From the NCBI RefSeq assembly GCF_003334305.1, contig NZ_QOWS01000001.1: a stretch of DNA of 64,000 nt; one strand, 5' to 3'. Below, one piece after another: positions 51,712 to 56,542 of the stretch. The translations under genes and the position numbers were made by a program. The stretch is from Escherichia coli. GTDB taxonomy: Bacteria > Pseudomonadota > Gammaproteobacteria > Enterobacterales > Enterobacteriaceae. How positions within the stretch are numbered: position 1 is the stretch's first letter; each line of letters begins with the position of its first letter. The notes beneath the pieces are model-generated. The model ran no database searches, was not told the origin of the DNA, and saw only the letters and a list, made by a program, of their open reading frames with translations.

Positions 51712-52530
51712 ATGCAGCTAAGAATTACCAGTCGAAAAAAACTCACCTCTCTATTATGCGCTCTTGGGCTAATTTCCATCGTTGCAATTTATCCGCGTCA
51801 GACGGTGAATTTTTTCTATTCGACAGCAGTTCAGATTACAGACTACATCCATTTCTACGGTTATCGCCCGGTTAAATCTTTCGCTATTCGCATTCCTGCC
51901 AGTTACACCATTCACGGAATAGATGTTTCTCGCTGGCAGGAGCGGATCGACTGGCAGCGGGTGGCAAAAATGCGCGACAACGGTATCCGCTTACAGTTTG
52001 CTTTTATTAAGGCGACGGAAGGCGAAAAGCTGGTGGACCCGTATTTTTCGCGTAACTGGCAACTAAGCCGCGAAAATGGCCTGCTGCGCGGGGCGTATCA
52101 TTATTTCTCCCCGTCGGTAGCAGCGCCGGTTCAGGCACGATTATTTCTGCAAACGGTGGATTTCTCACAAGGCGATTTCCCTGCGGTACTGGACGTAGAA
52201 GAACGGGGAAAATTATCGGCAAAAGAATTACGCAAACGAGTAAGTCAGTGGCTAAAAATGGTCGAAAAAAGTACGGGAAAAAAGCCGATTATTTACTCAG
52301 GAGCCGTTTTTTATCACACCAATCTGGCGGGCTATTTCAATGAATATCCGTGGTGGGTGGCTCACTATTATCAACGTCGTCCGGACAATGACGGCATGGC
52401 CTGGCGCTTCTGGCAGCATTCCGACCGTGGACAGGTAGATGGCATCAATGGTCCGGTGGATTTTAATGTATTTCATGGCACGGTGGAGGAGTTGCAGGCA
52501 TTCGTTGATGGGATTAAAGAAACGCCTTAA
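51712..52530 (+). CDS. yegX: GH25 lysozyme-like glycoside hydrolase YegX
   Basis: Signal-anchored protein with GH25 motifs (GIDVSRWQ, FAFIKATEG). Confidence 0.8.
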   Translation: MQLRITSRKKLTSLLCALGLISIVAIYPRQTVNFFYSTAVQITDYIHFYGYRPVKSFAIRIPASYTIHGIDVSRWQERIDWQRVAKMRDNGIRLQFAFIKATEGEKLVDPYFSRNWQLSRENGLLRGAYHYFSPSVAAPVQARLFLQTVDFSQGDFPAVLDVEERGKLSAKELRKRVSQWLKMVEKSTGKKPIIYSGAVFYHTNLAGYFNEYPWWVAHYYQRRPDNDGMAWRFWQHSDRGQVDGINGPVDFNVFHGTVEELQAFVDGIKETP

Positions 52531-52581
52531 ATAAGAAGCAGTGATATACTCCCACCAGACTCCCCGGCAGGAAAAAGACAA

Positions 52582-53328
52582 ATGGAACAAGCGCATACCC
52601 AGCTGATTGCCCAACTGAACGAGCGTATTTTAGCGGCGGATAACACGCCGCTTTATATTAAGTTTGCCGAAACGGTAAAAAATGCCGTGCGCAGCGGGGT
52701 GCTGGAGCATGGCAATATTTTGCCCGGTGAGCGTGATTTAAGTCAGTTAACCGGCGTTTCGCGCATTACGGTGCGCAAGGCGATGCAGGCGCTGGAAGAA
52801 GAGGGTGTGGTGACGCGTTCGCGCGGTTACGGCACGCAGATCAACAACATCTTCGAATACTCGTTGAAAGAAGCGCGAGGTTTTTCTCAGCAGGTGGTAT
52901 TGCGCGGGAAAAAGCCCGATACGCTATGGGTTAACAAGCGTGTCGTGAAATGTCCCGAAGAAGTCGCGCAGCAGCTGGCGGTCGAAGCAGGAAGTGATGT
53001 CTTTTTGCTTAAGCGTATTCGCTATGTCGATGAAGAAGCGGTATCGATTGAGGAATCGTGGGTTCCGGCGCATTTAATTCATGATGTTGATGCCATCGGG
53101 ATTTCACTTTATGACTATTTCCGCAGCCAGCACATTTACCCACAACGTACGCGTTCCCGCGTTAGCGCCCGGATGCCGGATGCCGAGTTTCAGTCACATA
53201 TTCAGTTAGATAGCAAAATACCGGTGCTGGTGATCAAGCAAGTGGCGCTTGACCAACAGCAACGGCCTATTGAGTACAGCATTAGCCACTGTCGCAGCGA
53301 TCTATACGTTTTTGTGTGCGAGGAGTAG
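52582..53328 (+). CDS. yegW: GntR/HutC-family transcriptional regulator YegW
   Basis: N-terminal GntR HTH (LPGERDLSQLTGVSRITVRKAM) plus UTRA effector domain. Confidence 0.85.
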   Translation: MEQAHTQLIAQLNERILAADNTPLYIKFAETVKNAVRSGVLEHGNILPGERDLSQLTGVSRITVRKAMQALEEEGVVTRSRGYGTQINNIFEYSLKEARGFSQQVVLRGKKPDTLWVNKRVVKCPEEVAQQLAVEAGSDVFLLKRIRYVDEEAVSIEESWVPAHLIHDVDAIGISLYDYFRSQHIYPQRTRSRVSARMPDAEFQSHIQLDSKIPVLVIKQVALDQQQRPIEYSISHCRSDLYVFVCEE

Positions 53329-54267: not shown

Positions 54268-55268
54268 ACCGCCTCCCGTTGTTGACGATATTTCGCCAGC
54301 GCTGTGGCATAGCGGTTGAAATCAAGCTGATTTACCGCATCCAGTTCCGCCTTTAATGCAGGATCGATAGCGTTAACGCCATGCAACGCGCCGCAAATCG
54401 CCGTCGCCATAGCGCCGATGGTGTCTGTGTCGCCGCCAAGGTTAGCGCACAGGACGGCGCAGCGATTCGGGTCGGTTTGTGCCAGTTCAACCAGCGCAAT
54501 GGCGCACGGAACGGACTCAATAGTGCTGGTACCTGCGCCAACGACCTGGTAAAGCTGTTCGCTGGCGGATTCGGTGCCGTCGGCATTGCGCACAATTTTC
54601 AGCGCAATCTCCAGACGTGCTGCCAGTGAGGCGCTGAAGGTAGTGATGCGTTTTTGCTGTGCATGTCGCGCAATTGAAGGCAGGGAATCAACAATCGCTG
54701 ACCAGCTTTCTCCGTCAATGGCACGAGAAATCACCCATGCGATGACTACCGCACCTGCAACTGCCAGATCGGATTTATGGGTCGGGCTCGACGCCAGCGC
54801 CACATCATCAATAAAGGAATCAACATCACGCGCCGGAAGCAAACAACCTAATGGCGAGACGCGCATCGCTGCGCCGTTGGTCACGCCGTTGTTTTCCAGT
54901 TCAGCAACGGGTTTACCGTCGCGAATGGCGTTAAGCGCAATCTTCGAGGTCGGACCTAGTACGTTTTTGTTAAAGGCGTCGAAACGCAGCGCCCAGTCGA
55001 GAATATTACGCCCAATCAGATCCGGATCGATCTTGCCTTCACGTTCCAGTAACGCATCCGCCAGACACAGCGCCATCGAGGTATCGTCGGTGAATTCGGC
55101 GCGGTTAAAATAACAGGCCGCGTTATTCTCCTTTGGTCCAGGAAGAAAACGGTCAATCCAGCCAAAGTGTGCTTTAACGCGGCTGCGTGGCCAAAGCTCG
55201 GAGGGCATCCCCATCGCATCCCCTAACGCCTGCCCATAAAGAGCACCGAGAATACGTTCTGTTTTCAT
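54264..55268 (-). CDS. yegU: ADP-ribosylglycohydrolase-family protein YegU
   Basis: 334 aa; ARH-family residues (GQALGDAMGMP, GGDTDTIGAMA). Confidence 0.85.
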   Translation of the reverse strand: MKTERILGALYGQALGDAMGMPSELWPRSRVKAHFGWIDRFLPGPKENNAACYFNRAEFTDDTSMALCLADALLEREGKIDPDLIGRNILDWALRFDAFNKNVLGPTSKIALNAIRDGKPVAELENNGVTNGAAMRVSPLGCLLPARDVDSFIDDVALASSPTHKSDLAVAGAVVIAWVISRAIDGESWSAIVDSLPSIARHAQQKRITTFSASLAARLEIALKIVRNADGTESASEQLYQVVGAGTSTIESVPCAIALVELAQTDPNRCAVLCANLGGDTDTIGAMATAICGALHGVNAIDPALKAELDAVNQLDFNRYATALAKYRQQREAV

Positions 55269-56542
55269 TTAACTTCCCCTTGTGTCAACGCAATATCGCG
55301 ATCATCGACCTTGATAGCCGTAATTTCGTTGTCGGATTCGCGGAAAAAAATCATGAACAGCACGGCGATAATGGCAATCATCACCGCGCCAAAAGTCCAC
55401 ATCCCGGACCAGTTGAAAGTCAGTCCGTTTACCGGTTCCTGATAAGCGAACATCTTTTCCATCATCACACCGCCAAGACGATAGCCGAGCAAACTGCCGA
55501 AGCCCTGGCAGCAGAGCGTGATCAGCCCCTGCGCGGCGGTACGCATATGCACGGGGGCTTTTTTATCGACATAGATGTAAGCGGTAACGTAGTAAAAATC
55601 GTAACTTACGCCGTGAAGCAAAATACCGAGGAACAGTAACGCGTAGGTGAAATATTCATCCGCACTACCGTAAATAAAGAAGCCATAGCGGATCGCAGCG
55701 GTGACCAGACCAAGCAATAATACCTTTTTGATACCAAAGCGTTTAGTGAAAAACGGTAATGCCAGCATAAAGAATATTTCAGAGAACTGGCCGAGCGTCA
55801 TCCAGCCGGTGGCATTTTTCATGCCGACTTCGGTCAGATAACCGTTGGCAAAGATGTAATAGAACGCCAGTGGCATCGCAAACAGGAATGAACAGAAGAA
55901 AAAGACGAGGAAGTTTTTATCGCGCAGCAGGATCAGCGCATCCAGGCCGAGCATGACTTTAATGTCCATTTTGCCGGTGCTTTTTGGCGGCGTGTCGGGC
56001 AGGAAAAACGCAAACACACCGAGCAGAGCAGAACTTCCGGCGGTAATCAGCAGCGGGATGTTAGTCGGTGAGATATCGGCATACCCCAGCATTTGCGGCA
56101 AGAAACCACATGCCAGACCAGAGGCAATCCAGCCGATAGTGCCCATCACACGAATGCGCGGGAAATCACGCTCCACATCCGGCACGTTGGCAAAAGCGAT
56201 ACTGTTAGTCAGCGCAATGGTCGGCATATAGGTTAGCGAGTAGGCCAGCAGTAACGGGAAGAACCCGGCAAAAGTGGTCTGTTGCGCAGCGAAATACATC
56301 AGCAGCGCGCCTGCGAACATCAATACCGCCAGCACTTTTTGCGCCGAGAAAAAGCGGTCAGTGATGGAGCCAACCAGAATTGGCGACAGGATCGCCGCAA
56401 TGGCTGTGCAGGCATACGACCAGCCAATTTCTCCGGCACTAAAACCGCTTTTACTTAACCACAACCACAATGGCACAAACCACGCGCCCCAGATAAACCA
56501 TTCAACAAACATCATGAACGACAGCTTTGCTGTTGTTTTCAT
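55265..56542 (-). CDS. yegT: MFS nucleoside:H+ symporter-family transporter YegT
   Basis: 425-aa 12-TM protein; recognised. Confidence 0.85.
   Translation of the reverse strand: MKTTAKLSFMMFVEWFIWGAWFVPLWLWLSKSGFSAGEIGWSYACTAIAAILSPILVGSITDRFFSAQKVLAVLMFAGALLMYFAAQQTTFAGFFPLLLAYSLTYMPTIALTNSIAFANVPDVERDFPRIRVMGTIGWIASGLACGFLPQMLGYADISPTNIPLLITAGSSALLGVFAFFLPDTPPKSTGKMDIKVMLGLDALILLRDKNFLVFFFCSFLFAMPLAFYYIFANGYLTEVGMKNATGWMTLGQFSEIFFMLALPFFTKRFGIKKVLLLGLVTAAIRYGFFIYGSADEYFTYALLFLGILLHGVSYDFYYVTAYIYVDKKAPVHMRTAAQGLITLCCQGFGSLLGYRLGGVMMEKMFAYQEPVNGLTFNWSGMWTFGAVMIAIIAVLFMIFFRESDNEITAIKVDDRDIALTQGEVK

Follow-up and report, generated by a model that had tools for sequence, protein, structure and literature searches.

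A widespread ARH/PfkB gene pair in the yegTUV operon of Escherichia coli and its possible role in the use of a non-canonical riboside

The 64-kb stretch of DNA analysed here (64,000 nucleotides of contig NZ_QOWS01000001.1; "the window") is Escherichia coli chromosome and carries the yegTUVW locus, in which yegT, yegU and yegV encode a permease, a protein of the ADP-ribosylglycohydrolase (ARH) family and a PfkB-family kinase, and yegW encodes their repressor. The locus and its regulation are already known; the remaining question is the substrate and chemistry of the ARH/PfkB module, which is widespread among bacteria. We propose, at what we judge to be even chances, that yegTUV is a substrate-inducible operon for the uptake and the breakdown or salvage of a non-canonical riboside, with the kinase acting before the hydrolase. 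In this scheme, YegT would import the compound by H+ symport, YegV would phosphorylate its sugar, most likely at the 5'-OH of ribose, and YegU, a two-metal enzyme of the ARH fold, would hydrolyse the glycosidic bond of the phosphorylated intermediate, yielding ribose-5-phosphate and the free aglycone. YegW would repress the operon via GGTAT direct repeats over its promoter until freed by a phosphorylated ligand, and its native inducer is probably a pathway intermediate. More generally, YegU and the PfkB kinase YegV, which bears a characteristic Cys, may belong to an uncharacterised pathway that spans several phyla, in which the ARH fold would serve as a phospho-riboside (or phospho-glycoside) glycohydrolase acting on a non-canonical riboside that is plentiful in gut and soil, the effects on ADP-glucose and glycogen described below being side effects of derepression. 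This wider reading is plausible, at chances slightly short of even. Candidate substrates within such a pathway include pyridine ribosides, α-ribosides such as α-ribazole, and imidazole ribosides.

The genes of the locus lie in the window as follows:
52582-53328, plus strand: yegW (ggaR), GntR repressor of the HutC type that carries a UTRA effector domain, convergent with yegV.
53302-54267, minus strand: yegV, PfkB-family kinase of the ARH-linked subfamily.
54264-55268, minus strand: yegU, predicted metal-dependent glycohydrolase of the ARH fold (ADP-ribosylglycohydrolase family).
55265-56542, minus strand: yegT, H+ symporter of the NHS family (MFS), the first gene of the operon.
53302-53328, no strand assigned: 27-bp overlap of the convergent coding ends of yegW and yegV, of the excludon type, taken from open reading frame (ORF) coordinates.

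Region 51000-57500 has matches of at least 95% identity in 5425 of 5426 complete E. coli genomes, and at least 80% of the stretch is held by 5417 of them. The yeg region also occurs on E. coli records of 0.39-1.4 Mb labelled as plasmids, which are probably chromosome fragments or mislabelled replicons. Five ORFs of the window are identical to the RefSeq-annotated yegX, yegW, yegV, yegU and yegT of E. coli, and the RefSeq gene order runs rcnR, a thiamine pyrophosphate (TPP) riboswitch, thiM, thiD, yegX and yegW on one strand, yegV, yegU and yegT on the other, and then fbaB. The start of yegU overlaps the stop of yegT in an ATGA, as does the start of yegV with the stop of yegU, an arrangement characteristic of operons with translational coupling. 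A sequence-only reading of this DNA had assigned the five genes to their families, and Pfam and TIGRFAM scores uphold all of those assignments (GH25, ADP_ribosyl_GH, GntR with UTRA, PfkB and NHS permease); its description of the cluster as divergently arranged, in contrast, has to be reversed. The units yegX-yegW and yegV-yegU-yegT converge, with the coding ends of yegW and yegV overlapping by 27 bp, and the sole divergent pair is yegT/fbaB. Within that overlap there is no room for a terminator, and yegV-yegW is among the predicted excludons of ExcludonFinder (PMC12288877); the GgaR protein level has been reported as constant (PMC10819704). Overlapping or abutting convergent ends of the yegW/yegV type, judged from stop-to-stop ORF coordinates, are found in other Enterobacterales too, as well as in annotated Pantoea and Salmonella records.

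The case for a conserved module comes from relatives of YegU. When YegU was searched against 1.84 billion cluster representatives and the best 150 at 50%-identity clustering were considered, 12 of the 150 were at least 560 aa long, and 11 of these 12 are fusions of PfkB and ARH domains, in both domain orders. The remaining long relative, P0165 (692 aa), has tandem ARH domains and lacks a kinase domain. Gene neighbourhoods were then counted with one genome per species, within 3.5 kb of the ARH gene, which gave 79 loci from Enterobacterales, Vibrio, Chromobacterium, Lachnospiraceae, Dialister, lactobacilli, Bacillaceae, Streptomyces, Chloroflexi and others. A YegV-like PfkB gene is present in 59 of the 79 loci and a GntR/UTRA gene in 50; as for transporters, there is an NCS1 permease in 23, an NHS permease in 19, a PnuC-family transporter (above the TIGR01528 cut-off) in 15 and a sugar-type ATP-binding cassette (ABC) system in 5. 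Annotated records and metagenomic contigs give the same picture. On these counts, the conserved unit is a transporter, an ARH gene, a PfkB gene and a HutC-type regulator, and the transporter is freely swapped: it comes from one of three families that are known to carry nucleosides, nucleobases and vitamin ribosides. No other gene family recurs beside the pair in the 79 loci, in which no specific search for glg genes was made; in particular, neither an aglycone-processing enzyme nor an ADP-ribosyltransferase partner recurs there. Genes of the purine nucleoside phosphorylase family near the pair were seen on two metagenomic contigs, looked up separately. A literature search found no published substrate for YegU or YegV, and no paper in which an ADP-ribosylglycohydrolase and a PfkB kinase are treated together.

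YegV matches PF00294 (PfkB) at 4e-56 and carries the NxxE motif (N202, E205) and the GAGD motif (G266-D269, with the catalytic Asp D269). Its best NCBIfam and PDB matches are ribokinases (TIGR02152, 82 bits; a PDB ribokinase, 6.6e-16), as would be expected if the hydrolase came first, that is, if YegU cut the imported riboside to free ribose and aglycone and YegV, as a dedicated ribokinase, then made ribose-5-phosphate; fusion and adjacency by themselves leave the step order unfixed. We regard this order as unlikely. YegV falls far below the cut-off of the ribokinase equivalog (82 bits against 300 for TIGR02152), and it does not reach that of the pseudouridine kinase equivalog either (19 bits against 540 for NF007355). 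Moreover, E. coli already has a ribokinase, RbsK, in which N14, K43 and E143 contact ribose, and the residues of RbsK that are lost in YegV close over the sugar. In YegV, these positions are Val, Cys and Ala, respectively. An alignment of 60 ARH-linked kinases with E. coli RbsK shows that the replacement is systematic: 59 of the 60 have a hydrophobic residue at N14, 47 of the 48 aligned at K43 have Cys there, and E143 is variable, while 59 of 60 retain RbsK D16, G42 and N46 and 60 of 60 retain NxxE and the catalytic Asp of GAGD. The loss of the RbsK residues fits a pocket opened for an aglycone, and the alignment indicates that the ARH-linked PfkB kinases, YegV included, are not ribokinases. 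Orthology of YegV to aminoimidazole riboside (AIRs) kinases was also considered and is unsupported by its PDB hits at E <= 1e-5, which do not include the AIRs kinase structures (1TYY and its relatives).

Further evidence on step order is provided by loci that lack the kinase. In an Enterococcus raffinosus megaplasmid, a Lachnospiraceae metagenome-assembled genome (MAG) and Helcococcus sueciensis, a phosphotransferase system (PTS) IIABC gene of the β-glucoside type stands directly before the ARH gene, and there is no PfkB gene. The three PTS IIABC and ARH pairs, whose ARH proteins are 33-35% identical to YegU, are:
L004, 5069-7978.
L069, 4983-7975.
L092, 5047-7969.
As a PTS both imports and phosphorylates its sugar, it replaces permease and kinase together and hands the hydrolase a phosphorylated glycoside, which favours phosphorylation as the first step. 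The known ARH substrates likewise bear a phosphate on the ribose that is cleaved (PMC8141533). Taken together, the PTS-linked ARH genes, the kinases of the YegV type that are not ribokinases and the 5''-phosphoryl ribose of the characterised ARH substrates argue for phosphorylation before cleavage, and the kinase probably acts first.

YegU itself matches PF03747 (ADP_ribosyl_GH; 3e-66) over residues 8-302, and its best PDB relatives are MJ1187 (1e-29) and ARH3 (1e-15). Residues E24, T60, D61, D62, D280, D282 and T283 align with E41, T76, D77, D78, D314, D316 and T317 of ARH3, so that YegU keeps seven of the seven residues of the ARH3 di-metal centre. The roles of these metal ligands in ARH3 are established, and the characterised ARH substrates are ADP-ribosyl (5''-phosphorylated ribosyl) linkages that are cut at the di-Mg2+ site (PMC8141533). 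The comparison with ARH3 made here is confined to the metal ligands; a literature search for the ligand-contact residues of ARH3 gave nothing. With its PF03747 domain and intact di-metal site, YegU could be taken for a true de-ADP-ribosylating enzyme acting on a protein, a nucleic acid or an antibiotic, like DraG, Tri1 or ARH3, with neighbours that are functionally unrelated to it. We consider this highly improbable. The equivalog scores are far below their cut-offs (80.9 bits against 337 for DraG, TIGR02662, and 69.8 against 490 for Tri1, NF041672), yegU is translationally coupled to permease and kinase genes, its relatives are fused to PfkB kinases and linked to transporters across several phyla, and, as noted above, an ADP-ribosyltransferase gene does not recur beside the pair in the 79 loci. 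Although YegU has the fold and all di-Mg2+ centre residues in common with ARH3, DraG and Tri1, the latter take ADP-ribose off proteins, poly(ADP-ribose), O-acetyl-ADP-ribose or α-NAD+, whereas the genomic partners of YegU point to small-molecule metabolism.

The permease is consistent with a riboside that is not a common one. YegT scores 654.7 bits against TIGR00889 (NHS nucleoside permease; cut-off 446.1) and is identical to PDB 8zoj, "putative nucleoside transporter YegT". Like NupG and XapB, it belongs to the NHS family, has their fold and carries the GxxxD protonation motif in transmembrane helix 10. However, it is 27% identical to NupG, whose uridine-contact residues were found not to be conserved in the 2025 structure of YegT, and isothermal titration calorimetry detected no significant binding of the four canonical nucleosides uridine, adenosine, cytidine and guanosine (PMC11979927). 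The sequence-only reading had suggested salvage of an unusual ribosylated compound; that suggestion fits a conserved and often fused ARH/PfkB module placed beside transporters for nucleosides and vitamin ribosides, together with a YegT that fails to bind canonical nucleosides, and it stands to that extent.

The regulation of the operon has been studied directly. YegW has a GntR winged helix (PF00392, 7e-16) and a UTRA domain (PF07702, 3.5e-36) and thus belongs to the HutC subfamily; it was renamed GgaR by Saito et al. 2024 (PMC10819704). Chromatin immunoprecipitation with microarrays (ChIP-chip) gave a single genomic peak for GgaR, at the fbaB/yegT spacer, and a weaker site was located inside yegT, in a fragment covering ORF nucleotides 571-869 that is bound at higher protein concentration; gel shifts bore out both sites, the best-bound probe being roughly 190 bp long. 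On Northern blots, a 3.3-kb yegTUV mRNA appears only in the yegW deletion, in which the operon is up approximately 30-fold by quantitative reverse-transcription PCR (RT-qPCR) and fbaB is unaffected (all PMC10819704). The earlier claim that the cluster is under YegW control is therefore confirmed by published work, with YegW as a single-target repressor of yegTUV. Neither the operator sequence nor yegX is given in PMC10819704, and a literature search found no follow-up work on GgaR or the operon after that paper beyond the 2025 structure of YegT.

The same study offers a different account of the operon. ADP-glucose at 10-100 µM, but not glucose or ADP, frees GgaR from the DNA of the fbaB/yegT spacer in gel shifts in vitro; the yegW deletion stores 2-3 times more glycogen, and its growth on glucose minimal medium is poor; high glucose raises yegTUV approximately 3-fold in a YegW-dependent manner; and the yegV deletion is among the listed glycogen-deficient mutants (PMC10819704). 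These results can be read to mean that yegTUV belongs to ADP-glucose and glycogen metabolism, with YegW sensing ADP-glucose, YegT, YegU and YegV acting on it or supplying it, and derepression raising glycogen. The sequence-only reading, which was right to call the substrate not established, did not know of this published alternative, in which YegW senses ADP-glucose and controls glycogen accumulation. We nevertheless regard it as decidedly improbable. No activity of YegT, YegU or YegV on ADP-glucose has been demonstrated, and if an ARH enzyme acted on ADP-glucose it would break the compound down, from which a rise in glycogen does not follow. The effectors tried did not include ADP-ribose, nucleosides or nucleoside monophosphates (PMC10819704). 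Elsewhere, the pair adjoins NCS1 or PnuC transporters, which handle small bases, vitamins and ribosides, not nucleotide sugars, and the lack of any other recurring family in the 79 loci, though not based on a specific glg search, also speaks against a link to glycogen. Finally, high glucose gives 3-fold induction against 30-fold for full derepression, which suggests that ADP-glucose is not the full physiological inducer; it may instead mimic a phosphorylated pathway intermediate at the UTRA domain.

Several points nonetheless weigh against the riboside proposal. Neither YegU nor YegV has been assayed as an enzyme, and a compound that induces the operon has yet to be found. ADP-glucose, the sole effector shown (10-100 µM), is a nucleotide sugar and not a riboside, and the glycogen and growth phenotype of the yegW deletion arises in glucose minimal medium, without an external riboside (PMC10819704), which means that overproduced YegT, YegU and YegV must touch an endogenous metabolite. 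Under the riboside proposal, such an endogenous effect is explicable only by an assumed side activity, for example of YegU on AMP. AMP is the main inhibitor of ADP-glucose pyrophosphorylase, GlgC (PMC10819704, introduction). If YegU were a glycohydrolase of the nucleoside-5'-phosphate type with some activity on AMP, its overexpression would lower AMP and lead to more glycogen, a drain on adenylates and slower growth. In addition, the PTS-linked homologues, which share just 33-35% identity with YegU, may act on a different sugar, and the characterised ARHs act on α-linked ribose, while ordinary nucleosides are β-linked. For the RbsK sequence used in the alignment and the roles given to its residues, the sole check is that the alignment E-value (3e-14) is similar to that of the PDB hit (9e-14).

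The DNA sites through which YegW may act were sought in the aligned upstream regions of yegT from 14 Enterobacteriaceae. A block, AAAGGTATTTAAAAGGTATTAT, is common to all 14 with one variable column and is followed by TGGTAT and GTACC; the rest of the spacer is variable. The predicted features are:
56571-56620, minus strand: predicted YegW operator O1, three GGTAT direct repeats and an inverted GGTAC (56573-56577).
56597-56626, minus strand: candidate sigma-70 promoter of yegTUV, -35 TTCACC, 18-nt spacer, -10 TATTAT, with 9 of 12 consensus matches, overlapped by O1.
55717-55738, minus strand: predicted weaker intragenic YegW site O2, TTTGGTATCAAAAAGGTATTAT, at about nucleotides 805-826 of the yegT ORF.

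The O1 repeats read ATACC on the plus strand, at 56587, 56600 and 56611, and O1 falls in the approximately 190-bp probe that GgaR bound best. O2 is the second-best match to the O1 block in the window and lies within yegT ORF nucleotides 571-869, the fragment that GgaR bound weakly. Same-strand GGTAT pairs spaced 10-14 bp apart occur three times in the window, where site counts predict approximately 0.6 by chance: two make up O1, and the third (55720/55731) is O2. Both GGTAT clusters thus lie within the 0.8% of the window that has been shown to bind GgaR, and we infer that the conserved GGTAT direct repeats are the YegW operator. GGTAT repeats are also found in Salmonella, Pantoea, Vibrio, Rahnella and Hafnia, and TGGAYTT repeats, likewise spaced by 11 bp, occur in more remote clusters of the NCS1 type that have a divergent GntR gene. 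The candidate -10 TATTAT lies inside the conserved GGTATTAT repeat. Scans for promoters and terminators across the region gave site counts not above the expectation from shuffled sequence, so the call of the yegTUV promoter depends on its overlap with the conserved block; the overlap of O1 with this candidate promoter is consistent with repression by occlusion.

Two further elements of the yegT/fbaB spacer were seen. At 56656-56667 (plus strand), a block TGAATCGAGCCA (GGCTCGATTCA in the yegT sense) is conserved in most of the aligned Enterobacteriaceae; we take it to resemble a half-site for Cra (FruR), and it may serve fbaB rather than yegT. At 56722-56760 (plus strand), a short way upstream of the start annotated for fbaB (56799), lies an inverted repeat with 17-nt arms, GGATTATGATTGCCCGC and GCGGGCCAGGACAATCC, that are 76% complementary and separated by a 5-nt loop. 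On the opposite side of the locus, a TPP riboswitch (RF00059, 71 bits) is found at 49931-50027 (plus strand), upstream of thiM-thiD. The gap between thiD and the yegW that follows it on the same strand is 35-150 bp in Salmonella, Citrobacter and Enterobacter; with the riboswitch upstream, yegW may be read through from a thiamine-controlled operon.

Among known systems, the closest in logic is psuT/psuK/psuG (yeiM/yeiC/yeiN) of E. coli, whose products phosphorylate pseudouridine and then cleave the 5'-phosphate to ribose-5-phosphate and the base. Like yegTUV, it combines a transporter, a PfkB-family kinase and a glycosidase, deals with a non-canonical nucleoside and follows the logic proposed here, but YegU has the ARH fold (PF03747) and not that of PsuG, and YegT is of the NHS and not the NupC type. 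A second parallel is STM4065-STM4066-STM4067 of Salmonella. According to PMC3161100, STM4066 is an aminoimidazole riboside kinase and STM4067 a putative ADP-ribosylglycohydrolase (citing Dougherty & Downs 2003), and an STM4067 mutant is attenuated in the pig gut. This operon likewise unites an ARH-family protein with a permease and with a PfkB kinase that acts on a non-canonical riboside; it differs in occupying another locus and in not being orthologous, Salmonella also carrying a true yegTUVW. YegW, for its part, shares the GntR winged helix and UTRA domain with HutC-type repressors such as NagR, TreR and PhnF and acts as a local repressor of a single operon, but it reaches no equivalog cut-off, the best being PhnF with 129 bits against 157. 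Half-sites of the HutC subfamily follow a GGT-A-type consensus, which the half-site of the predicted YegW operator resembles. The predicted operator differs in its arrangement, with direct repeats at 11-13 bp spacing in place of a single palindrome.

Links to particular metabolic pathways were considered from individual neighbourhoods and set aside. One Lactiplantibacillus (L.) plantarum plasmid has an ARH-NCS1-PfkB trio beside an NrtR-like Nudix gene, pncB and a nicotinamidase-like gene, but a second plasmid has the trio without NAD genes and three upstream regions share no 10-mer, so that a link to NAD was kept as a candidate idea only. For thiamine, thiMD stands beside yegW in enterics and, in one Firmicute, TenA (thiaminase II; L013, 11365-12192) lies 1.1 kb from an ARH-NCS1-PfkB trio, which is too sparse a pattern. 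A link to allantoin or purine breakdown appears on one contig only (L012, 1337-15029), where the pair lies among allantoin and glyoxylate catabolic genes. Separately, two Lachnospiraceae MAGs (L058 and L059, at about 5970-10150) carry ARH homologues 41-43% identical to YegU whose neighbours are an AraC-type regulator and an Lsa-like ABC-F ribosomal-protection gene in place of a kinase and a transporter; these may have a different function, possibly related to antibiotics.

The fifth gene that the sequence-only reading had counted in a "yegTUVWX" cluster does not belong to the module:
51712-52530, plus strand: yegX, muramidase-like protein of family GH25 with a membrane anchor or signal at its N-terminus, a neighbour outside the module.

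YegX matches PF01183 (GH25) at 6e-54 and PDB 2wag at 3.6e-33, and its motifs GIDVS (residue 69) and LDVEE (residue 160), numbered on the 272-aa form, align with those of 2wag; in GH25 enzymes, an N-terminal Asp and the DxE motif have catalytic roles. After a charged N-terminus comes a single hydrophobic stretch of 17 residues (positions 11-27 in the 272-aa form, with a mean Kyte-Doolittle value of 2.3), and inspection of this N-terminal sequence revealed no obvious cleavage site. The description of YegX as a periplasmic GH25 muramidase-like protein thus stands for its family, while for its location a membrane-anchored extracytoplasmic enzyme is as likely. A GH25 gene occurs beside none of the 79 related loci (0/79). 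In Citrobacter, Enterobacter, Kluyvera, Cedecea, Mangrovibacter and Superficieibacter and in an annotated Salmonella record, yegW stands directly next to thiD and thiM, without yegX. Relatives of YegX at 90% identity or more come from E. coli, Shigella and E. albertii only, and the next nearest named ones are Sphingobacteriales proteins at 44-52% identity. In E. albertii (L095, 6902-11913), yegX and yegW are split by two large paralogues of 857 and 814 aa with DUF6493, DUF7824 and DUF7825 domains, which stand after yegX where E. coli has yegW and mark the yegX/yegW junction as an insertion hot spot. On an Escherichia-like contig (L096, 6001-6807), a GH25 gene 67% identical to YegX lies between rcnB and thiM in place of rcnA/rcnR, followed by thiM-thiD-yegW and the convergent yegVUT, so that this gene family is inserted elsewhere in the same neighbourhood. 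Many E. coli and Shigella entries for YegX are short forms of 160-241 aa, which suggests that the gene is frequently truncated or pseudogenised, especially in Shigella. YegX also matches endolysin families of PHROG; an origin as a prophage remnant was rejected, the surrounding genes including no phage genes. From its sequence and distribution, yegX is best read as an Escherichia-specific, lineage-specific acquisition inserted between thiD and yegW that would encode a membrane-anchored or secreted muramidase, and its adjacency to the operon has no detectable functional implication.

In E. coli K-12, yegT, yegU and yegV still count among the genes to which no biochemical function has been assigned, and the pair to which yegU and yegV belong is common in gut Lachnospiraceae, lactobacilli, Enterobacterales, actinomycetes and Chloroflexi. 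Moreover, the paralogous operon STM4065-4067 of Salmonella matters for persistence in the pig gut. The question is made testable by the constraints described here, namely a kinase that appears not to be a ribokinase and probably acts first, a transporter of the riboside type nearby, and a predicted operator. Knowing the substrate would assign the ARH fold a part in metabolism and account for the glycogen phenotype seen in the regulator mutant.

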